Shown piece by piece: positions 6,457 to 18,653 of a stretch of DNA of 64,000 nt. Each line of letters begins with the position of its first letter. Position 1 is the stretch's first letter. The notes beneath the pieces were generated by a model. That model had not been told where the DNA came from and searched no databases. It saw nothing but the letters and a program-made list of their open reading frames with translations. Location: assembly GCA_963755915.1 (NCBI GenBank), contig CAVWLP010000003.1:480001-544000 (forward strand). Direction: 5' to 3'. Origin of the DNA: an uncultured Phycisphaerales bacterium (GTDB lineage: Bacteria; Planctomycetota; Phycisphaerae; Tepidisphaerales; Tepidisphaeraceae). The position numbers were made by a program, and so were the translations under genes.

Positions 6457-7086
6457 TTACTTCTCATCTGATCGCCCGAATAATCCCCAGCTCTCACGCC
6501 CATGTGAAAGCTGCCGGGACGACGAGTGGGCTGCTGTGTGCGCCGGCGATGGCCGCCGATCACTGGCACCGACACCTTCGCCCGCGATCGACTTCGCCGT
6601 CTCCTGCGGTTGGACAGATTTCGTGGTGGCCTCTTCCTGTGAGGATGATTTCCCCATCTCAGACTCCGGGTCAAGGGAGGGAATGTCACTCAAGATCGAC
6701 TCGCCGGTGCGAAGATTTCTGGCGAGCAGATCCAGAAAGCGATGGAACCGTTGCTTGCCGCTGAGCAGCGCCGCTGTTTTCAAGGCATCGGGAATCGCCG
6801 TTGCGTGATTGAAGAATGATCGCATCCCCAGCCCGACCATTTCCTTGAGCACCTGAATGTCGAGCCGAAGCTGCTGTTCCAATCGGCGCAGGGCATGGAA
6901 GTTTCGGTCGGCGGCCTTGAGGATTTCCTGTTCGCGCTCACTGCGGTAGCTGGACAGCAGCGATTCCTTCGCCGCCTCGGCAAGCGCAGCGGAGAGAGAC
7001 ACTTTCATCTCGCTCGCCCGCTGCCTGGCCGCCTGCAACACCCGCGGCTCCAACCGGACCGTGACCTGAACACGATTTCCTTTCAC
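6457..7086 (-). CDS. CopG-like ribbon-helix-helix protein of Tn4371-type ICEs
   Basis: N-terminal VQVTVRLEP strand plus helices; located between traG and trbB as in Tn4371-family elements. Confidence 0.65.
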   Translation of the reverse strand: MKGNRVQVTVRLEPRVLQAARQRASEMKVSLSAALAEAAKESLLSSYRSEREQEILKAADRNFHALRRLEQQLRLDIQVLKEMVGLGMRSFFNHATAIPDALKTAALLSGKQRFHRFLDLLARNLRTGESILSDIPSLDPESEMGKSSSQEEATTKSVQPQETAKSIAGEGVGASDRRPSPAHTAAHSSSRQLSHGRESWGLFGRSDEK

Positions 7087-8937
7087 AAATCCCCCTTCGA
7101 GTCATCCCGATCCCCATCGTCGATGTCCTGCTCCAACTCGGCTTCGTCCGGTTCAGGCGAACTTTGGACCAGCGCCGCGTCATAAAGAGGATTTTTCGGT
7201 GGAGTAGGCAACGGCGGTCCTTTCGCCCGCTCGCGCAGCCAGTCAATCGGCGGTTTGTCCGGACCATTCAGGTGCAGCGATTGGTCCGGCGCCGCCAACA
7301 AGCGCGCCATGAATGTCCGATCCGCGAAATACCGCAGCTTCCGGGTTCGCATCGGTTTGTACCCTGTCACAAAAACGAGTTGATCGTCCACCGGCAATTC
7401 CCGGATGTCCCCTGGCGACAATAGCGGCCGGACATGCTCGCTATGGCTGATGGTTCGAGCACCCCAATGCCGTCCCGGCTGCGAATAGCTTTCCCGGTAT
7501 TCGGTCACGGTTCCCGTCATCTGGCTGATGCGCTGGCAGGTAACGGTATCGGCCGCGGCGAAGGTGGTCAGGATGTGGCAATTGTCCAGGATCGTGTTGT
7601 TGGTCCCGTACTGCTCGATGATGTCGTTGAAGGATTGAACGATCAGGTGCGCCTTGATCCCGTAACCCGCCATCTGGCGCAGGTTCATCGTGAAGAAGTC
7701 CAGCCGCCCCAGCGTCGGGAACTCATCGAGTGACAAGAGGAGTCGATGCCGCTTGGGCCGTCCCACGGCGTCGCGATCGAGGTATTCCATCAGCGCTCGA
7801 CAGGCCTGGTTAATCATCAGGCGCACCAATCGGCGCAGCGCGGCGCATCTGAGGGCGGTGGCTGGAGGTAGAGCGTCATGGGCCGATCTAAGCAGACCAA
7901 ATCGCTGAGCCGAAAGTCGCTGGTTGCCGTGTTGCGGGCAACGATGTCGTCCGCCCACAACGTGAGGTATGCTGCGGCCGTGCCGCACACGCTGGCTTGG
8001 AACTTCTCCGGTTGTCGGCGCAGCTCGTTGGCCACCAGCGCCACTTCCGGATGAACTTCCGGCACGCCCGTCTGTGGATTGAAGCGGTGCGGTGTGCGGA
8101 TCATCGCCTTGCTGGTGTTCTTGAAATCCAGCAAGCGCGCCCGGACCGTCGCCAGGTTCTTGTGCGATTCCGGCTCGGTGTACAACACGTGCAGGATCAG
8201 CGCCACGAGAAACTGGCTGGCCTGCTGGTCCCAAATGTCCATCGTGTGTTTCGCGCCGGTGGGATTGACCAGCATCTCGACGATGTTCTGCGCGTCCCGG
8301 ATTTCGTTCGCTCCGCGGCGGATTTCAAAGAGGGGATTGAATCGGGCGCTGTCAGGCCGGGTCGGATTGAAGAACAGGCAAGGGCCGAGCGTCGCCCGAA
8401 AGCCCGCGGTGACGTCCCACAGTTCATTCTTCACGTCATAGGCCAGGACGCTTCCGTTCCAATTCAAGAGCGTGGGAATCACATGGCCAACCCCCTTGCC
8501 TGACCGGCTGGCGCCGGAGATCAATTGATGCTCAGGTCCGTCATAGGTCAGATCGCGCCCGTGCGCCAGCCCAGGACGGTTCCCTTTCCGTTCAGCAATC
8601 CGGCCGTTTTCATGTCGCGCTTCGTGGCCCATCGATCCCGGCCGAGTTCGCGCACGGGGATGGTGCGAAGCCGGCGCGCCACCACCAACATGAGCGTGGC
8701 CAGAACGAACGAACCCCCGATGACGGCATAGCCAACGTTCAAAGTGTCTGGAATGTCGTCGCCGAATCGCCGGGCCCAGATGATCAGCGCCCAGGGCGGA
8801 TAGATGGTGTGCGCGCCGAAGTGCAAACCGCCCAGCGCCGGATGGTAATTCAGCCGGTAGCCCACCCATTGCGTGGCGGCGATCAGGCCCGCCAGGAGCA
8901 CCAGGACGTAAGCGATGATGAGCCGCCGAGCGGTCAT
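7083..8937 (-). CDS. traG: Type IV coupling protein TraG/VirD4; frameshifts near 8565 and 7840
   Basis: Pieces 8548..8937 (ATQWVGYRLNYHPALG, TM), 7817.. (SRSGKGVGHVIPTLLNW, YDVKNELW, RFNPLFEIR) and 7083.. (LDEFPTLGRLDFF, GYGIKAHLIVQS). Confidence 0.9.
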
Positions 8938-10919
8938 ATCTCAGCCCCCGATCCGCCGAGGGACAGTCCCGCATCGAGGTTGATGGACTGTCCAGCCGCC
9001 AGTTCCACAGTGGCATCCTGCGCGGCGGTGCGCTCCAGGCGGACTTCACTGCCGGCCGCAACATCCGGGGTTTTGGTGGTGGGCGAGACGAAAACGCTCT
9101 CCTCCGTCACAACAACGGCCAGCTTGCCGGCATGAAGATGCTCCGTGCCGTGATACTCCCCCTCGACGGTGCCCCCTTTGGGCAGTTCAACCACCGGCCG
9201 GTCGTACCTCTTCTCCAGTCGTTCCCCCAGTGCCCTGCGCTCCTCGAAGGCAAGCTGCTGAAGCACTCCGGGCAGCGGGCGAATCGACCCGCCATCGCCA
9301 TCCGATCGCTCGGCGTATCCGTTTTGAAGCAGCCAATCGCGCCGATGCTGAACGGCATCCAGCGTCGCCGGATGGCTCACCATGCGCACATCCGGCATGT
9401 CGCCGAACGCTTGGCGGTCGAGCCAAGTGACTGCGTGCGCCTCAATTTGCTCCGTCTGAGAACGTTCCGCGATCACGCGCACGTCCGTTCGATGGCTTCC
9501 CCGCTGACTGAAGTGAGCAAAGGCAACTGTATCAACGGTGTACTCACCAAGCCGCGATGCGCGCACTCCCGAACCCTCGAATCCGGCAACGAAGTCCAGT
9601 CGGAATGCCGCGGAGCGGACGGCGGATTCAATCTCTCGGTCGGTCGAGGCCGCCTGGGACACGCGCAGATACGCCTCGTGCAACTGTGCGGAGTAGACCC
9701 CACCGTTTACCTTGGCAACGGCCGCGATCTGCACCGTGACCTGCTGGCGGCGGTGGGTTGCCGCGCCCAGTTCCGCCACCGAGCCGATCTCCAGATCACG
9801 GTAGGTCTCGTTGTCCCGGACCCGTCCATAGCGCGCTTGGCCTGCCGCATCCCGCAGTACGACGAACCGATCCTCCCCGATCTCATCGGGACTTCCCTTG
9901 GCAATGACCACGCCGGCCACGGGAACCGATGGCTCGGCTCCCCCGGCCATGCGCTGCACCCGTCCGGCCTCGTTCCCCAAACTGCCGTAGAGCTGTGCAA
10001 TGATGTCGTTACGGTTACCCAGTTCGCGCAAGGCCTGTTTGAAGTCGTCTTCGACGTGCCAGTTTGTTCCCCGCCCCTTGTGCGCCAAGTCCATCTTCTC
10101 CAGAAACGACAACCGTCCCACCACCAGCAGCCGGTCCTCGGCGCAAAAACCGATGCACCGGGAGGGCGAGATATCGATCTTTCCGTTCTCCAAATGCCGC
10201 TCGATCATCCGGTCCAGGGAGGTGAACCGCTCGGCTTCGACCTCCTTGGTCTTGGCCAACTGAACTTCCTGGGCACTCCGTTCCCCCAGCAGTTCGGTCG
10301 CGACCTCGCAGGCGCGGTCCCGGATTCCATACGATATATATTGTCGGGGGATGACCAGGTCGGTCCCATCCGCTTGCTTCCCCCGCAACATGATGTGCGC
10401 ATGGGGGTTGTCGGTATTGTGGTGATTGACGGCGATCCACTGGAGCTTGGTGTCCAAATCCCGCTGCACGCGCTTCATCACTTCGCGCACATACGCGGTC
10501 ATGTCGGGGATGTCGGCGCCATGCTCCGGCGACACGATCAGGCGGAAGTGATGCCGGTCCGGCGCCCACTGGACGGCCTCCTGTTTGACGTCCACGCCGT
10601 CCCGCGCTGCGTCGTAAAACACCCCGCGCTTGCCATCCGCGCTGGCGCTCTCTCGCCCCAGGTAGGTGACATGGCGCACCAAACTCCCCCGCGCTTTGCC
10701 GGGCTTGTGACGGCTCACCAGCGCCTTGACGACCACGCGCTGGCGCGCACTGGATGCTCCCGCGGGTCCGCCGAACCGCTTGGCCTTGCGTCCCCGAAAG
10801 CCGCGCAGCCGCCGGGCGATCTGGCTGTTCACGCTCGGCTCGCCCTGCCGGCGGCTGCCCATGCGGCCGATTCGATCCGCATCCACACGATCCGACGACT
10901 GCTTGAATCTCCCTGGCAT
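8934..10919 (-). CDS. Relaxase/mobilization nuclease (VirD2-like, DUF3363/RlxS type)
   Basis: RQRVVVKA, HVTYLGRE (catalytic Tyr), DRHHFRLIVSPEHG, HHNTDNPHAHIMLRG (HUH), TWLDRQ; GGAGG RBS before ATG 10919. Confidence 0.92.
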   Translation of the reverse strand: MPGRFKQSSDRVDADRIGRMGSRRQGEPSVNSQIARRLRGFRGRKAKRFGGPAGASSARQRVVVKALVSRHKPGKARGSLVRHVTYLGRESASADGKRGVFYDAARDGVDVKQEAVQWAPDRHHFRLIVSPEHGADIPDMTAYVREVMKRVQRDLDTKLQWIAVNHHNTDNPHAHIMLRGKQADGTDLVIPRQYISYGIRDRACEVATELLGERSAQEVQLAKTKEVEAERFTSLDRMIERHLENGKIDISPSRCIGFCAEDRLLVVGRLSFLEKMDLAHKGRGTNWHVEDDFKQALRELGNRNDIIAQLYGSLGNEAGRVQRMAGGAEPSVPVAGVVIAKGSPDEIGEDRFVVLRDAAGQARYGRVRDNETYRDLEIGSVAELGAATHRRQQVTVQIAAVAKVNGGVYSAQLHEAYLRVSQAASTDREIESAVRSAAFRLDFVAGFEGSGVRASRLGEYTVDTVAFAHFSQRGSHRTDVRVIAERSQTEQIEAHAVTWLDRQAFGDMPDVRMVSHPATLDAVQHRRDWLLQNGYAERSDGDGGSIRPLPGVLQQLAFEERRALGERLEKRYDRPVVELPKGGTVEGEYHGTEHLHAGKLAVVVTEESVFVSPTTKTPDVAAGSEVRLERTAAQDATVELAAGQSINLDAGLSLGGSGAEI

Positions 10920-13798: not shown

Positions 13799-14257
13799 TC
13801 AGATCGGGATTTCCTCGCGGGCGCTGGCCATTGCCGGGACCTGCTCGGGGGTCCGTCCATTGCGCCCGCCGCTGCGGCCTCGGCCCGGCTTTGGACCACG
13901 GCTGTTCGCGGCCTGACCGCTGCCGGGCTTCCGATCCACAAAGCGGAACTGCTCGACCACGACACGAATCTTGCTGCGCCGCTGGCCGTCCTCCTGTTCC
14001 CACTGTTCCAGCCGTAAATGGCCTTCGACGTGGATCGGACGTCCCTTGGTCAGGCTTTCGGCAATGGTCTGCCCGGTCTTGCCGAACGCGGCGCAGTCGA
14101 TGAACAAGACTTCCTCGCGGGCCTCGCCGCTTGAGTCTTTCCACCGGCGGTTGACCGCCAGCGCGAAATCGCAAACCACCGTCTGACTCGGAAGCGTCTT
14201 AAGCTCCGGGTCGCGGGTGAGGTTGCCCATAAGGATCACTCGGTTGTAGCTGGCCAT
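13799..14257 (-). CDS. ssb: Single-stranded DNA-binding protein
   Basis: MASYNRVILMGNLTRDPELK, FALAVNRRW, LTKGRPIHVEGHL, acidic tail EEIPI; AAGGAG RBS. Confidence 0.95.
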   Translation of the reverse strand: MASYNRVILMGNLTRDPELKTLPSQTVVCDFALAVNRRWKDSSGEAREEVLFIDCAAFGKTGQTIAESLTKGRPIHVEGHLRLEQWEQEDGQRRSKIRVVVEQFRFVDRKPGSGQAANSRGPKPGRGRSGGRNGRTPEQVPAMASAREEIPI

Positions 14258-14377
14258 GATGAATCTCCTTGTGTAAATGGCCACTCATGAATGCGGCGTC
14301 CCATTGACGACCGCTCCCCAGCCCGCCCCGACGCGCCTCCATGCGCACCGGGACGGGTTCGGGGAGGGGTCGCCGGT

Positions 14378-15385
14378 TTAGGCAACGCCCGCCAGTTCCA
14401 ACGCGCCCCGATACGCGGCCTGCTTGAGTTGATGCGATTGGCCGAACCAGACTGAATCCAATTGCCGGTCCAGCTTGTCGGCGGGTGAAGCGCCGCGGTA
14501 CTTCCGCTGGTGGTCCGCCCATTCGCTGACCGCGTTGTACGCGCCCCATGCGGTGTGCTTCACGCCGGGAAGCGTGTTGCGGTCGTTATCGAAGTTGCCG
14601 AGCATCTGCCCGAATATCTGCTCGCGGCTTTTCTTCTGCCGGGCCGATTGCCCCGGCAATTCCGCGCCGGACAGTCCACGGAAGTATCCGCCCGCCTCGG
14701 TGACGGTCAGTTCCTTGGCAAGCATCGCGTGCAATTCATCATCAAATTTGTCGAACCGCGCCGCGATGATGCCGAGCTTCGCCCGCGCCTCGGCAATCCG
14801 GCTCTCCAACCGGGGATGATGTGAAATCGTCAACCCCTCGACGCCGGATTCCCGCAGGGCCAGATTCAAAGTGTTCTGACACACCACGCGCACAGTCGTC
14901 GGAATCATCCGAAGCGCCTGGCTACCGTCGTGCGTGTTGGTCAAGAGAACGTAAGGCTTAATCAGGTCGTCCGGTCCGGCCCGATACTCTTTGGGAATGC
15001 TGGCCATCATCCACACACGCTTGCCGCCGTGCAGACTGCCCGCCGTCTCGTACATGGCGAGCTTGTCGCCCACCAGTCCATCCATGAAGTCGAAAGCTTC
15101 ATGGTTCTGGAACACCCGATAGCGCCGCCCAACCACGCCCAACACCGCCTTGGTATCGGTGCGGACATTCGCCACCGTGTCCGGTATGCCTGCCTCAACA
15201 CTCTGGTTGTCCGGGTCGAAAGCCCGGACCGGCCATTGCTCGACGCGCCAATCCAAACCCGCGAGGCCGATAGCCTCGGCACTGGTAGTCGCCTGTTCAA
15301 TCACCGTGCCCAAGCGATGCCATGCTGGTTCGCCGGTCACGAATACTGCCGCTCGTCCCGTTGTCTGGTCGATCTCGTGTGCCAC
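14378..15385 (-). CDS. DUF932 family phage/plasmid protein
   Basis: AWHRLG, AGLDWRVE, YETAGSLHGGKRVW, LLTNTHDGS, VRVVCQNTL, TAWGAYNAVSEWADH; GGAGGT RBS before GTG 15385. Confidence 0.9.
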   Translation of the reverse strand: MAHEIDQTTGRAAVFVTGEPAWHRLGTVIEQATTSAEAIGLAGLDWRVEQWPVRAFDPDNQSVEAGIPDTVANVRTDTKAVLGVVGRRYRVFQNHEAFDFMDGLVGDKLAMYETAGSLHGGKRVWMMASIPKEYRAGPDDLIKPYVLLTNTHDGSQALRMIPTTVRVVCQNTLNLALRESGVEGLTISHHPRLESRIAEARAKLGIIAARFDKFDDELHAMLAKELTVTEAGGYFRGLSGAELPGQSARQKKSREQIFGQMLGNFDNDRNTLPGVKHTAWGAYNAVSEWADHQRKYRGASPADKLDRQLDSVWFGQSHQLKQAAYRGALELAGVA

Positions 15386-15451
15386 AAAGCACCTCCCGAA
15401 AAGGAAGAAAACTCCAAACCGGGATGGCTTAGGCCCACAAAGGCCCAAGCA

Positions 15452-15702
15452 ATTTTTTGACCTCCCGGCTTCGGAAGAAGCACGCCGGGAGGTCTAAAAA
15501 GAAAGTTCCTTCCTGCTGGCGACGGAAACGCGAGCGCAGCGGACGAAGGGCATGCCACGCGCAGGCCCGGAGCCATGTACTCATGGTGAGGAGGCGAGCA
15601 TGGCAAGCGCAGCGGTGACCTTTCGAGAGCGCAGTCGAGCCAGATGTGCCGTAGGCCCGCTGCTCTGGCCGCGTGCGACCTTCAGGAATCCAGCGGGCCT
15701 AC
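15452..15702 (+). promoter_or_regulatory. Structured non-coding region, putative ssi/ssDNA-promoter (leading region)
   Basis: Perfect stems GACCTCCCGGC/GCCGGGAGGTC (15459-15494) and GTAGGCCCGCTG/CAGCGGGCCTAC (15651-15702); three AGCGCAG motifs between them. Confidence 0.5.
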
Positions 15703-15737
15703 CTTCCCTCGTGTTCCCGGCGCCATCCTTATCGTCT

Positions 15738-16040
15738 GTGCCAACTGCACATCGACTCAACAAACCTTCGGGATGGATCACGATCACTCATCCATTCCAT
15801 CCCTGGCATGGACGACGTTTTGAAATTTGCAAATGCAGAGATATTGCCGGGGTGAGGATGGTCGGATTGATCGATTCCACCGGCAATACGCAGTTTGTTC
15901 CGCTGGAGTGGACCGATCGCAATCCGCCGATTCCCTGCGAAGCGCTGCACGATCCCAAGCCGATACTCAATGTGCGCTGCCTGCTGAGGCTGGCCCAATT
16001 GATCGAAACTACATCCCCAAATCGACAAAAGGCGGATTGA
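15738..16040 (+). CDS. DUF5372 (Y4bD-like) protein; no RBS in the integrated state
   Basis: ITITHPFHPWHGRRF...VPLEWTD motif; frame begins (G)TG CCA ACT GCA at the element's left end. Confidence 0.75.
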   Translation: MPTAHRLNKPSGWITITHPFHPWHGRRFEICKCRDIAGVRMVGLIDSTGNTQFVPLEWTDRNPPIPCEALHDPKPILNVRCLLRLAQLIETTSPNRQKAD

Positions 16041-16144
16041 CGTGATAGCGACTATGCAACCAGAATTGCCGGAGCGCGCCCACGCGCATCGTCGTTTTGC
16101 ACATCAGTGGATGGAGATTCGCTCTCCACATGGAGCGCTTTGGC

Positions 16145-16294
16145 ATGGAGGCCAACCCCACAGTTCGTTGTTCCCCCGCGGCCGACGATATCGAGCAAAT
16201 CGCCCGCATCGTGGCCCACATGCTTCAAACACTCGCGCAAGACAACAAGGCCCGCCGCCATTCGCATTTGCGCAACAAAGAAGGTGTCCGATGA
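16145..16294 (+). CDS. Small hypothetical protein coupled to the recombinase
   Basis: GGAG+ATG 16145; amphipathic helix IEQIARIVAHMLQTL; stop overlaps the recombinase ATG (ATGA). Confidence 0.5.
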   Translation: MEANPTVRCSPAADDIEQIARIVAHMLQTLAQDNKARRHSHLRNKEGVR

Positions 16295-18357
16295 ACAACA
16301 AGATTCAGAGTCAGCATTTGAACCTTCCCGCTTACATCTACTTGCGGCAGTCCACGCCGCGGCAACTGCTCCATCACCAGGAAAGCACCCAGCGCCAGTA
16401 CGCTTTGCAGGAAAAAGCGAAAGAACTGGGGTGGCTTCCCCATCTCATCCGCGTCCTGGACGGCGATCTCGGTCAGTCAGGTTCCTCGCCGGATGCGCCC
16501 CGTGAGGACTTCAAGATATTGGTCGATGACGTTTCCATGGGCAAGGTCGGGGCGATCTTCGCGCTGGAAGCCTCGCGCTTGTCGCGGTGCTGCGCGGATT
16601 GGCATCGCCTGCTGGAACTGGCCACCCTGGGCGGCGCACTGATTATCGATGAGGACGGCTGCTATGACCCATCCGACTTCAACGATCAGCTTCTGCTGGG
16701 ACTCAAGGGAGCGATGTCGCAGGCGGAATTGCACTTCATGCGTGCCCGTTTGCAGGGAGGCCGGCTGAATAAGGCCCGCAAAGGAGAATTGCGCATTCCG
16801 CTGGCAGTAGGACTCTTTCATGATGAATTGGGCCGGATCGTCCTGGACCCTGACCAACAGGTACAGCAGATCGTGCGCCAGTTGTTCGACAGCTTTCGCC
16901 AGACCGGCAGCGCCTACGGCGCGGCGCACGACTTCGCCGACAAAAACCTGTTGTTCCCCAAGCGCATTCACGGCGGCGCGTGGGATGGCGAGCTCCAATG
17001 GGAGCGGCTTTCCACCAGCCGGGCGTTGTCAGCCCTCAAGAATCCTGCTTACGCCGGGGTTTATGCGTATGGGCAACGGCGATACATTCGCCGGCCGGAT
17101 ACCGATGGCAAAATTCATCGGCATACCAGTAAACTGCCCATGGAGTCCTGGGCCGTGAAGATCGACAATCACCATCCCGCGTACATCGATTGGCCGACAT
17201 TCCTGGAGAATCAGGCGATGCTGCGGAAGAACCAGACTGTCAGCGGATCGACGCCGTTGCCCGGACCGGTGCGCGAGGGACGCGGTTTATTGCAGGGCTT
17301 ATTGCTCTGCGCACGTTGCGGTCGGCGTCTGGGCGTCCGCTACCACGGCGACGGCGGAGCGCGGTGCAGATATTTATGCGGCCGTCTTCTCAGCGAGGGG
17401 CTGTTGTCCCGCACGTGCATGAGTCTGTCCGCCGATCCGCTCGATCAGGCCGTGAGTCACCGCGCGCTTGAAGCGATGCAGCCGATGCACATTGAAATCG
17501 CCCTCAAGGCGATGGAGCGGTTCCATCATCAGCAGGAGATTACGAATCGCCAGTGGCAATTGCGGTTGGATCGCGCCGGCTACGAAGCAGCACTGGCCCA
17601 GCGTCGTTATGAGAAGGTAGATCCCGACAACCGGCTGGTGGCCGCCACGCTGGAAACCCAATGGAATGAGGCGTTGGCGGAACTGGACCGACTGCGCATG
17701 CAGTATGAGGAGCAACAGCAAAATCAGGCGGTCAGTGCACAGGAACAGGAATCTATCCGCCGCCTGGCTCACGATCTGCCGGTACTCTGGAACGCGCCCA
17801 CCACGCAAGCGCGCGATCGCAAGCGAATCCTGCGTTTGCTCATTAAAGATATCACCGTCGAGAAACTGGAAGATCCGAGGCGGACGTTGCTGCATCTGCG
17901 CTGGCAAGGCGGCGCCTGCGAAGACATCGTTGTCCAGACGAAGCAGCCGTCCGGCAACGGTTTACGCTATCCGGCGAATGTAGTTGAGCAGGTGAGGCAA
18001 ATGGCAAGCTCGATGCACGATGGGCAGATTGCCGCCGAATTGAACCATCGGGGAATGCACAGCGCCACCGAGAAGCCGTTCACTTCGGAAATGATCCGTT
18101 GGATTCGTCATCGCCATGATGTGCCAGGGCCGACATTCAAACGTTCCGATGAGCTGACGGTGAGGGAAATGTGCGAGAAGTTCGGCGTCAGCCACCATGT
18201 CGTCTATTATTGGATCGAGCGCGGAATTGTCTCAGCCCGTCGTGCAACGGCGGGTTCGGCGTGGCTGGTCACCTTGAACGCCGAGAAAGAGCTTGAACTT
18301 AATCGCCGGTTGGAGCAATCACCCCAAATCCATCGCCGAAACTTGCAACCGTCCTAA
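16291..18357 (+). CDS. Large serine recombinase (resolvase, recombinase, Zn-ribbon, coiled coil, C-terminal HTH)
   Basis: AYIYLRQST (catalytic Ser), DGDLGQSG, EASRLSR, LKNPAYAG, LLCARCGRRL, EKVDPDNRLVAATLE, HTH VREMCEKFGVSHHVVYYWIERG. Confidence 0.93.
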   Translation: MNNKIQSQHLNLPAYIYLRQSTPRQLLHHQESTQRQYALQEKAKELGWLPHLIRVLDGDLGQSGSSPDAPREDFKILVDDVSMGKVGAIFALEASRLSRCCADWHRLLELATLGGALIIDEDGCYDPSDFNDQLLLGLKGAMSQAELHFMRARLQGGRLNKARKGELRIPLAVGLFHDELGRIVLDPDQQVQQIVRQLFDSFRQTGSAYGAAHDFADKNLLFPKRIHGGAWDGELQWERLSTSRALSALKNPAYAGVYAYGQRRYIRRPDTDGKIHRHTSKLPMESWAVKIDNHHPAYIDWPTFLENQAMLRKNQTVSGSTPLPGPVREGRGLLQGLLLCARCGRRLGVRYHGDGGARCRYLCGRLLSEGLLSRTCMSLSADPLDQAVSHRALEAMQPMHIEIALKAMERFHHQQEITNRQWQLRLDRAGYEAALAQRRYEKVDPDNRLVAATLETQWNEALAELDRLRMQYEEQQQNQAVSAQEQESIRRLAHDLPVLWNAPTTQARDRKRILRLLIKDITVEKLEDPRRTLLHLRWQGGACEDIVVQTKQPSGNGLRYPANVVEQVRQMASSMHDGQIAAELNHRGMHSATEKPFTSEMIRWIRHRHDVPGPTFKRSDELTVREMCEKFGVSHHVVYYWIERGIVSARRATAGSAWLVTLNAEKELELNRRLEQSPQIHRRNLQPS

Positions 18358-18422
18358 ACCCGTAGCCATGAGGTGCAATATGCGGAAACCGTCCTGACCT
18401 CGTGCTCGGAATGCACTTACCC

Positions 18423-18653
18423 TCAACGGAATTCCCATTGCACAGGTCCATGAAGGTGAATGAGCGTTACTGCACCGTTTGCTGGCTCGATCTGAACGTC
18501 GATACTTCCATTGGGTTCTTCAGTCTGGCGAATGTGGAGCGGTAGGTCCATTACATGACTAACGTGGTTCTCAGACTGATGACCGGCGCTGACCTGTACG
18601 CTGCTGGGGCGAGTGCCCTTGGTATCGAAACTGATCCCCTCACCCCGTGTCAT
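18423..18653 (-). CDS. Hypothetical protein (possible DUF5335-like fragment)
   Basis: 76-aa ORF overlapping the upstream stop; weak resemblance only. Confidence 0.3.
   Translation of the reverse strand: MTRGEGISFDTKGTRPSSVQVSAGHQSENHVSHVMDLPLHIRQTEEPNGSIDVQIEPANGAVTLIHLHGPVQWEFR

Follow-up and report, generated by a model that had tools for sequence, protein, structure and literature searches.

How is a gene expressed when its body lies at one end of a mobile element and its start signals lie at the other? The question is raised by an element within the window (the whole 64,000 nt stretch of DNA analysed here; features given by coordinates lie on its plus strand unless described as unstranded). 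At the left end, a reading frame matches the Pfam family DUF5372 (PF17342; E 1.2e-10; score 41.7 bits, cut-off 25; profile positions 1–76 of 78), with the domain starting at 15783. The stretch from 15730 to the domain start lacks an in-frame ATG, and its only candidate start, GTG 15738, is not preceded by purine-rich sequence. At the right end, the stop codon of a large serine recombinase (LSR) gene (TAA, 18355–18357) is followed by a Shine–Dalgarno sequence, GAGGTG (18370–18375), and by an ATG at 18380 that opens only five codons, M-R-K-P-S (18380–18394), before a TGA (18395–18397) of which the GA comes from the flank. Both the headless frame and the orphan ribosome-binding site with its ATG had been pointed out in an earlier sequence-only reading of this DNA, which proposed that excision of the element as a circle builds the start of the gene, and both stand. 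The annotated start of DUF5372 is false, with 60 aa in the window's own record and 164 aa in relatives, and full-text searches found no papers on DUF5372, PF17342 or DUF6788, the last being a family encoded by relatives of the element.

Sequence comparison identifies 15728–18395 as an insertion-sequence-like element moved by the LSR, with a circular form of 2,666 bp and a gene content of DUF5372, a 65 aa ORF and the LSR only. The insertion point is a conserved non-coding site adjoining the DUF932 gene of a conjugative element. A near-identical element occupies the same site in another genome (L020; DUF5372 96 % identical); in a blast alignment the two loci are alike from 14976, and the likeness ends exactly at 18395, beyond which L020 carries the sequence found after CCATCCTTAT at L002 and L003, two paralogous sites of the window's own genome that bear no insertion. 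These sites resemble the window up to 15732 (L002, 89 % identity) and up to 15743 (L003, 84 %). A metagenome contig from run X2 likewise departs from the window after 18395, with the same continuation as L020, TATTG(C/T)TTCCGACAGCAC. The sequence-only reading had set the left boundary at 15738 and the crossover at a TGC present at both ends (15739–15741 and 18381–18383), where joining would also be in frame, and had predicted the empty site CTTATCGTCTG-TGC-GGAAACCGTC. That version deserves practically no credence: it lies 12–15 nt off, the likeness to L020 extends 12 nt past the TGC, and L020, the uninterrupted sites and the X2 contig place the crossover at a CT (15728–15729 in attL), the last two giving a different empty site. 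Another candidate crossover, at CTCAAC (15756–15761 and 18422–18427), was prompted by the likeness of the right flank to L003 and was ruled out by L020, the blast end-point and the X2 contig.

The crossover dinucleotide CT is the same in attL (15728–15729, 55 nt before the domain start) and in attR (18394–18395, 14 nt past the orphan ATG), lies in a shared core that reads TCCT in the window (15726–15729 and 18392–18395) and TCCTTAT in L020, and is flanked by imperfect inverted repeats, as expected of an LSR. The left-arm repeat of attP, GGTGCAAT (18372–18379), is overlapped by the Shine–Dalgarno sequence, so that the two together span 18370–18379, where relatives show a GGTGCAnTATG-like motif. 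It matches the reverse complement of ACTGCACA (15744–15751), within the element (P′) arm of attL (15730–15751), at six of eight positions, and the pair is symmetric about CT and not, as the sequence-only reading had it, about a central GC. In relatives, the motif (c)aACTGCAC is found again at the place of 15744–15751, and the crossover dinucleotide is TT, GG or CC. The target (B) arm of attL (15705–15727, unstranded) belongs to the conserved non-coding sequence next to the DUF932 gene, and is alike in L002 and L003. Because the right flank (18396–18430, unstranded; AATGCAC at 18410–18416 with attP-like spacing) differs from the usual target half-site, the window copy may excise poorly. The canonical attR of the window's subgroup is known from L020 and one X2 contig; a metagenome scan found no close relative of this subgroup, the best match having 48 % identity over a short segment and longer matches at most 44 %.

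The element is present in a single copy in the window's genome. Related elements measure 2.6–3.5 kb, and the ends of one of them are defined by two 3,382 bp copies in a single genome (G351) that are 99.97 % identical and have different flanks; when these ends are joined, its ATG also falls in frame. Further copy pairs are L036/L037 and L089/L094. The element is an insertion sequence in the broad sense, being small, carrying mobility functions only and having relatives in near-identical copies with different flanks. A scan of species-representative genomes gave at least 430 confirmed loci of the family. The present element landed in a conjugative element; landing sites across related elements also include group II intron reverse transcriptase genes and IS21 transposase genes. 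No Rfam match was found anywhere in the window.

Joined at CT, the two ends place the ATG in frame, 69 nt before the domain and with no intervening stop, and yield a DUF5372 protein of 108 aa, eight residues longer than the N-terminus implied by the TGC crossover would allow. The right end contributes codons 1–5, and the body (15730–16040), which has no ATG of its own, contributes the last two bases of codon 6, codons 7–108 and the TGA stop. The earlier proposal that the circle junction assembles ribosome-binding site, start codon and gene body in one frame therefore holds with the CT crossover, by comparison rather than by experiment. The compared sequences show that attP sits within the 5′ end of the element's own DUF5372 gene, with the Shine–Dalgarno sequence, the ATG and codons 1–5 on one side of the crossover and codons 6–108 on the other. 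Integration therefore parts the gene from its start and leaves a stranded start that yields only the pentapeptide, and excision rejoins the parts in frame.

A comparison of homologous loci, which the sequence-only reading had put forward as a check, bears this out. Among 82 genome loci, 58 have a complete LSR (contig ends and frameshifts being noted causes in the other 24), and 45 of these 58 carry the GGTGCAnTATG-like motif near the LSR stop, perfectly in 30 cases. The right-end start joins DUF5372 in frame in 43 of the 45, nearly always 69 nt before the domain. The dinucleotide 14–15 nt past the start equals the dinucleotide 55 nt before the domain at 32 of the 45 loci, as against 0–11 at other offsets; a fit at 66, 72 or 78 nt was obtained for eight more loci and a fit judged by eye for three that lie at contig edges, which leaves two with no settled offset. 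This 69 nt rule, like the inverted repeat, centres on CT and is a further point against the TGC crossover. A metagenome set of 80 loci, of which 27 have a complete LSR and 23 could be tested, gave the same picture: the 69 nt distance holds at 22 of the 23, and one of the 22 has a stop in the joined frame. These counts overstate independence, because the loci are related to one another. The start motif stood ahead of DUF5372 in none of the 162 genome and metagenome loci, which means that all 162 are in the split form, and no circle junction was seen in assembled contigs (Logan), which cannot show rare forms. From these loci, the layout, with a start stranded at the far end and joined on excision, is shown to be conserved across the family and in many bacterial phyla.

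Might the right-end motif nevertheless be a recombinase arm only, with DUF5372 translated in the integrated state from a flanking or non-ATG start such as GTG 15711 or GTG 15738, and the in-frame junction a by-product? The motif is indeed one arm of the attP inverted repeat, so part of its conservation reflects recombinase binding and not translation. The target also provides an in-frame flank start five codons before the crossover codon, GTG 15711 in the window and ATG in L020, P0001 and P0003, and planctomycetes make little use of Shine–Dalgarno sequences. In the window's subgroup some translation while integrated, from GTG 15711 or GTG 15738, is accordingly conceivable. We judge this explanation very unlikely. 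The position of the start codon is fixed, and the frame survives length changes in multiples of 3 nt in several lineages (the offsets of 66, 72 and 78). No in-frame ATG is available to the integrated gene at 34 of 41 loci, and at 17 of the 41 there is no ATG, GTG or TTG from the upstream stop to the domain. Within codons 7–24 of DUF5372, an in-frame ATG occurs at 0 of 44 loci, and ATG, GTG and TTG are all absent at 28 of them. Comparison of the window with L020 shows indels of lengths other than multiples of three, which disrupt the upstream frame.

We therefore return to the split gene, and to its neighbours. At 22 of 44 related loci, start and LSR stop share an ATGA, so that in the circle DUF5372 comes after the LSR as the final gene, and not as the first gene that the sequence-only reading had called it. 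Transcription and translation leaving the LSR gene would then run on across attP into DUF5372. A consensus scan of the linear window found no promoter-like site at the right end. It did find a weak one, TTGACG and CAGAAT separated by 18 nt (16037–16066), just past the DUF5372 stop, which could drive the middle ORF and the LSR; the scan gave three sites in all against a mean of 1.2 in shuffled sequences. The middle ORF (16097–16294, 65 aa) has a TTG start and overlaps the LSR start; neither Pfam nor NCBIfam gives a match, it does not resemble the DUF6788 protein of L025, and in relatives its slot is filled by a DUF6788 or HTH protein. The LSR (16291–18357, 688 aa) has the Pfam domains Resolvase (the N-terminal catalytic domain with the nucleophilic serine; PF00239, E 9.1e-18, residues 14–166), Recombinase (PF07508, E 1.5e-17) and then Zn_ribbon_recom (PF13408, E 1.4e-6). 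Its R19, Q20 and S21, which the window reads within YLRQST, and its zinc-ribbon cysteines C340, C343, C363 and C376 do not vary among 24 sequences. Residues 622–661 form an additional, C-terminal HTH_17/MerR-like stretch, and there is a distant match to SPbeta integrase structures.

What the assembled protein might do is less directly readable. The columns THPFHP, G, F and WTD are invariant in 31 DUF5372 sequences, and the AlphaFold2 model (pLDDT 79.7) suggests a small barrel, SH3/KOW-like, followed by a C-terminal helix. Fold searches returned only generic SH3/KOW/Tudor-like barrels (best Foldseek E-value 6e-3, VIA-align Z 6.2), with a retroviral integrase C-terminal domain at VIA-align Z 5.1; from so generic a fold no function can be deduced. 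The predicted complex of DUF5372 with the LSR scored 0.70 (runs 0.70, 0.69 and 0.71) against 0.00 for the best of three controls. Of 80 solved complexes 58 attain that mark, as do 2 of 110 mismatched pairs. At least 61 % of contacts are shared between the runs, and partner pLDDT is 65 or more. On the DUF5372 side the predicted interface consists of the invariant HPFHP (22–27) and the C-terminal helix (70–97); on the LSR side it comprises residues 339–344, 395–411, 478–517 and 522–544, leaving residues 412–477 outside. In the available part of PMC12286644, AlphaFold2-multimer predicts that verified directionality factors bind at the junction of zinc ribbon and coiled coil, the criteria used there being a predicted position at this junction and away from the coiled-coil tip; our prediction places DUF5372 likewise. 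The predicted binding site of DUF5372 on the LSR is thus the place at which known directionality factors act. No likeness in sequence or fold to a named directionality factor was found.

The generic barrel would also suit a protein acting apart from the recombinase, namely a circle-specific DNA-binding or regulatory protein that shuts down the operon or affects the host while the element is free, and the overlap of attP with the gene's own ribosome-binding site would permit feedback. We consider such a role improbable, given that the predicted complex clears the mark, its controls scoring 0.00, and involves the invariant HPFHP, and that the gene is tied to the LSR, a complete LSR ORF lying downstream at 58 of the 82 genome loci. 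As the best explanation overall, we think it probable that DUF5372 is a cofactor of the LSR whose gene is split by integration and rejoined in frame by excision. Such a cofactor would be gated by the state of the element, being made only from the circle and shifting the reaction that the LSR favours. Most likely it would license or speed integration of the circle and restrain immediate re-excision, and the protein would then vanish because integration splits its gene again.

By eye, the outer motif lies about 3 nt nearer the centre in target sites than in attP, so that the spacing in attP and attB looks canonical. In the textbook model that goes with this spacing, the LSR alone integrates, and a factor at the zinc-ribbon/coiled-coil junction drives excision; spacing and model together would give DUF5372 a role opposite to the integration licence that we favour. 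Under this explanation, DUF5372 would be a canonical recombination directionality factor that turns the LSR to excision (attL × attR) and blocks integration, and protein made by the circle would trigger excision of other copies or delay re-integration. The predicted docking site agrees with that of the verified factors in the available part of PMC12286644, and relatives are multi-copy, with two copies in G351 and many matches lying some 56–59 nt from contig ends. Against it, an element dependent on such a protein for excision would have no way to make it until a first excision had taken place, 17 of 41 integrated loci having no canonical start, and a block on re-integration of a non-replicating circle would be costly to the element. 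We regard this explanation as unlikely. A directionality factor of reversed polarity is possible, if tentative: the LSR alone would excise, and DUF5372, its gene whole only after excision, would permit the integration that destroys the gene, making a self-resetting two-state switch in the DNA topology of very widespread elements specialised in landing in other mobile elements. The observation made by the sequence-only reading is partly confirmed, and its interpretation partly supported, the proposed directionality or re-integration role gaining some weight from the predicted complex.

If true, the element would possess a hard-wired means of sensing whether it is integrated or free, in the form of a cofactor gene assembled by excision and dismantled by integration. 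The DUF5372 element family is large, is spread over many phyla and targets conserved motifs of other mobile elements. LSRs are tools of genome engineering that are limited by control of direction, and a compact recombinase could be put to the test directly, together with its sites and a matching cofactor. For annotation, the false start that gene callers assign to DUF5372 is itself of consequence.

Full-text searches found no literature on LSR circular intermediates with a start codon at the junction, and several known systems offer partial parallels. In Tn4451/Tn4453 of Clostridium, moved by the LSR TnpX, the circle junction reportedly forms a promoter for the recombinase gene, with hexamers split across it, in work attributed to Lyras and Rood in 2000. 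As here, a small LSR-moved element is excised as a circle whose junction enables expression that is missing when integrated. The differences are that the junction described for Tn4451/Tn4453 is a promoter for the recombinase gene, whereas here the ORF of an accessory gene would be assembled, with Shine–Dalgarno sequence and ATG both on one end; that Tn4451/Tn4453 is said to carry cargo and mobilisation genes (catP, tnpZ), whereas the present element has no resistance or mobilisation cargo; and that the crossover dinucleotide here is CT.

Junction promoters are also formed in the circles of IS911, IS2, IS30, IS21 and IS110. Promoters specific to the junction or circle are described for integrative and conjugative elements in the available part of PMC13023037, namely Pcirc of ICEclc and P3′end of ICEKp1. 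In all of these, as here, the joining of ends ties expression to the state of the element, integrated or free; they differ in that transcription of an integrase or transposase is affected, whereas here a coding sequence is split and its product is a proposed cofactor, not the recombinase.

Attachment sites within genes are familiar from the SSV1-type integrase gene, which is split on integration, from the int gene of Mx8 and from the integration-dependent immunity of mycobacteriophages. These share with the present element an attP inside the element's own coding sequence, so that the encoded products differ between the integrated and the free form. They use tyrosine integrases, and the integrase or repressor is altered in its 3′ part; in the present serine recombinase element, the gene of a small proposed cofactor would instead lose its 5′ start and be turned off completely. 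The known LSR directionality factors, SprB of SPbeta, gp3 of phiC31 and gp47 of Bxb1 (PMC12286644), are likewise small element-encoded proteins with predicted binding at the zinc-ribbon/coiled-coil junction. These known factors are controlled by transcription, whereas DUF5372 would be controlled by the physical splitting of its gene.

The insertion carries three genes on the + strand: a DUF5372 frame whose domain begins at 15783 (Pfam PF17342, E 1.2e-10), a middle gene encoding 65 aa with no family (16097-16294) and a large serine recombinase (LSR) of 688 aa (16291-18357) that contains Resolvase, Recombinase and Zn_ribbon_recom domains and, at its C-terminus, an HTH_17-like stretch. LSR and DUF5372 each occur once in the genome. 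In agreement with the sequence-only reading of this DNA, the body of the DUF5372 gene lacks an in-frame ATG from 15730 to the start of the domain, and 3′ of the LSR stop an orphan SD and start, also + (GAGGTG, 18370-75; ATG, 18380), open a stranded frame, M-R-K-P-S, that runs into TGA at 18395-97. The stretch at the LSR C-terminus (residues 622-661, 18154-18276) is an HTH_17/MerR-like, excisionase-type helix-turn-helix beyond the coiled-coil region, with a match under the Pfam cut-off (22.7 bits vs 27).

The insertion is surrounded by a conjugative element encoding VirB9/CagX, TrbI, VirB11, a coupling protein, a relaxase, a ParB-like protein, SSB and DUF932. The type IV coupling protein gene (- strand, 7083-9064) consists of two overlapping ORFs (7083-8234 and 7817-9064) matching different sections of the T4SS-DNA_transf profile, which suggests a frameshift; the conjugative element may, therefore, be defective. 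Three copies of the SSB-DUF932 region, each with the adjacent non-coding stretch (13900-15740 in the window), are present in the genome at 84-89% identity, indicating several related conjugative elements. The other two copies are L002 (C3:42805-46137) and L003 (C2:589224-592575), and the LSR element is present only in the window's copy.

The ends of the element were located by comparison. The left flank (15400-15732/43) has L002 and L003 as paralogues, both without the insertion, in which GCCATCCTTAT is followed by TGCTTCCGACAGC... or TGTTTCCGCCAGC... A contig from a Tepidisphaeraceae MAG, L020, has this element inserted in the same site and encodes a 96% identical DUF5372; it resembles the window from 14976 to exactly 18395, and its right flank is the continuation found in the paralogues. 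A contig assembled from sequencing run X2 likewise matches the window up to 18395 before passing into that continuation, and a second X2 contig spans the right junction of the window itself. The core common to both ends reads TCCTTAT in L020 and, in the window, TCCT (15726-29, 18392-95), and since the paralogues, the L020 end-point and the X2 contig agree, the crossover is placed within TCCT. An inverted repeat, GGTGCAAT (18372-79) against ACTGCACA (15744-51), matches at 6/8 positions and is symmetric about CT, and on these sequence comparisons we take CT at 15728-29 and 18394-95 as the putative crossover dinucleotide. The resulting circle measures 2,666 bp. The sequence-only reading had set the crossover at a TGC shared by the two ends, centred the palindrome there and predicted the empty site to match; all three lie 12-15 nt away from the core, and the TGC position is ruled out by L020, the paralogues, with their actual continuation, the X2 contig and the repeat symmetry.

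The window's own right flank (18396-18470) departs from the usual target half-site precisely at the crossover. It contains AATGCAC at 18410-16 with attP-like spacing, and its stretch TGCAC..CTCAAC resembles the left end of the element. This flank could be left over from a second element, or could have arisen by a recombinase- or copy-mediated rearrangement.

Joining at CT sets codons 1-5 (18380-94) before a frame that resumes at 15730 as L-S-S-V-P-T-A-H-R-L-N, stop-free and encoding a protein of 108 aa. In-frame assembly of the gene at the circle junction, as originally proposed, thus holds with the crossover moved from TGC to CT, and the correct frame obtained at TGC was a one-in-three coincidence; both the earlier observation and its interpretation stand in part, the headless gene, orphan start and assembled frame being retained and the crossover, palindrome centre and empty site being replaced. 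The genome G351, from the same phylum, has two 3,382-bp copies of a related element, 99.97% identical with differing flanks. Their ends define a TT crossover 14 nt past an ATG preceded by AGGTGCAGT; after joining, that ATG reads through into DUF5372 in an open frame.

A DUF5372-alignment scan of species-representative genomes gave at least 600 pattern matches and at least 430 confirmed relatives, belonging to many phyla by record title among the matches listed. Eighty were kept which, with the window and G351, made 82 loci, 58 of them followed by a complete LSR ORF (450 aa or longer). Of these 58, 45 had a GGTGCAnTATG-like motif with a terminal ATG or GTG near the LSR stop (30 perfect). When the dinucleotide 14-15 nt past the start was compared with dinucleotides upstream of the domain at spacings of 48-90, a start-to-domain spacing of 69 nt fitted 32/45 loci and each other spacing 0-11. 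All 32 joined frames are free of stops and place 24 codons ahead of THPFHP. Eight of the remaining 13 fit 66, 72 or 78 nt, and another three, whose sequence starts at the crossover or close to it, match on inspection by eye at 69 nt (L044, L074) or 72 nt (L087), so that the right-end start joins in frame in 43/45 loci; the other two have a weak motif (L060) or a one-base core mismatch (L082). Copy pairs L036/L037 and L089/L094 confirmed the element ends. Among 80 metagenome contigs used for replication, 27 had a complete LSR and 23 were testable; 69 nt fitted 22 of these, L130 being the misfit, although in one of the 22, L111, a stop interrupts the joined frame at codon 6. Because the loci share ancestry with each other, 43/45 and 22/23 are not independent trials. 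The rule is kept in both of two deep groups, unlike in sequence and targets, and length changes between loci are multiples of three.

Decayed copies include L096, whose catalytic serine is replaced (RQLT), L111, and L024, L035 and L081, which have a broken LSR frame. L074 is one complete element on a 3.4-kb contig (CAZHOH010000042.1) binned as a Woesearchaeota archaeon, an assignment that may be a binning artefact because the contig scarcely exceeds the element.

Integrated copies offer few alternative starts. No in-frame ATG was found in codons 7-24 in any of 44 loci, and ATG, GTG and TTG were all absent there in 28/44; over the whole stretch from the upstream stop to the domain, 17/41 loci had no canonical start and 34/41 no ATG. 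The start motif stood directly before DUF5372 in 0/162 loci (82 genome, 80 metagenome); these assembled genomes contain the split form only. In 22/44 loci the start and the LSR stop overlap in the sequence ATGA, and in the circle DUF5372 would then follow LSR as the next gene. One caveat applies to the window: the target supplies an in-frame GTG (15711) five codons ahead of the crossover codon, at a position that is ATG in L020 and two further relatives (P0001, P0003). A longer frame that opens further upstream, at ATG 15552, is unconserved, as indels between the window and L020 are not multiples of three. Gene callers give DUF5372 proteins of 108 or 164 aa with flank-encoded N-termini, and the window's own record has a 60-aa fragment that starts at an internal ATG. 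The split-gene architecture is, on this comparative sequence evidence, well supported.

Related elements, at the loci listed here, reside inside other mobile elements. Among those tested, shorter elements (~2.6-3.0 kb) have DUF6788 as the middle gene (L025, L040, L063) and are flanked by a group II intron reverse transcriptase gene, in the same orientation in L034 and L038 and the opposite in L063; these three are inserted at the coding motif G-I-P-T-V. Longer elements (~3.15-3.55 kb) have an HTH protein in the middle (L030, L062, L067, L093) and IS21-type flanks matching rve (L092, L089), IstB (L089, L030) or the Mu-transposase C-terminal domain (L078, L071). In those five IS21-type loci (L092, L089, L030, L078, L071) the insertion falls where the rve domain of the transposase gene ends. 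The window's subgroup has switched to a non-coding target within a conjugative element.

In the AlphaFold2 model (31 sequences, pLDDT 79.7), DUF5372 forms a small four-stranded barrel with a C-terminal helix. Fold searches matched it to nothing more specific than generic SH3/KOW/Tudor-like structures (best Foldseek E 6e-3, best VIA-align Z 6.2). With alignments for both chains, the predicted complex with LSR scored 0.70 (runs 0.70, 0.69 and 0.71), a mark reached by 58/80 solved complexes and 2/110 mismatched pairs; the best of three controls scored 0.00. Contact agreement between runs was at least 61% and partner pLDDT at least 65. The predicted contacts join the invariant HPFHP and helix of DUF5372 to LSR residues 339-344, 395-411, 478-517 and 522-544, comprising the zinc ribbon and both sides of 412-477. 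Binding of DUF5372 to LSR thus has support in silico only. In PMC12286644, verified directionality factors have varied folds, and AlphaFold2-multimer predicts that they dock at the same LSR junction as that predicted for DUF5372.

DUF5372 is probably a recombinase cofactor, made solely from the free circle. We favour a cofactor that would license integration of the circle and damp re-excision, because a non-replicating circle must re-integrate and because no factor on which excision depends could be produced in advance of it. The main rival is that DUF5372 is a canonical factor promoting excision, and what looks like canonical spacing between the site motifs speaks for this rival.

Literature searches for DUF5372, PF17342 or DUF6788 by name, and topic searches for a split-start layout, found neither a paper that uses these names nor one on such a layout. 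Genes containing attP are known from tyrosine-integrase systems, and Tn4451 reportedly has a circle-dependent promoter. Circle-dependent promoters are also established for ICEclc and ICEKp1 (PMC13023037). Set beside these systems, the element would add a further form of state-dependent expression to those described for mobile DNA.
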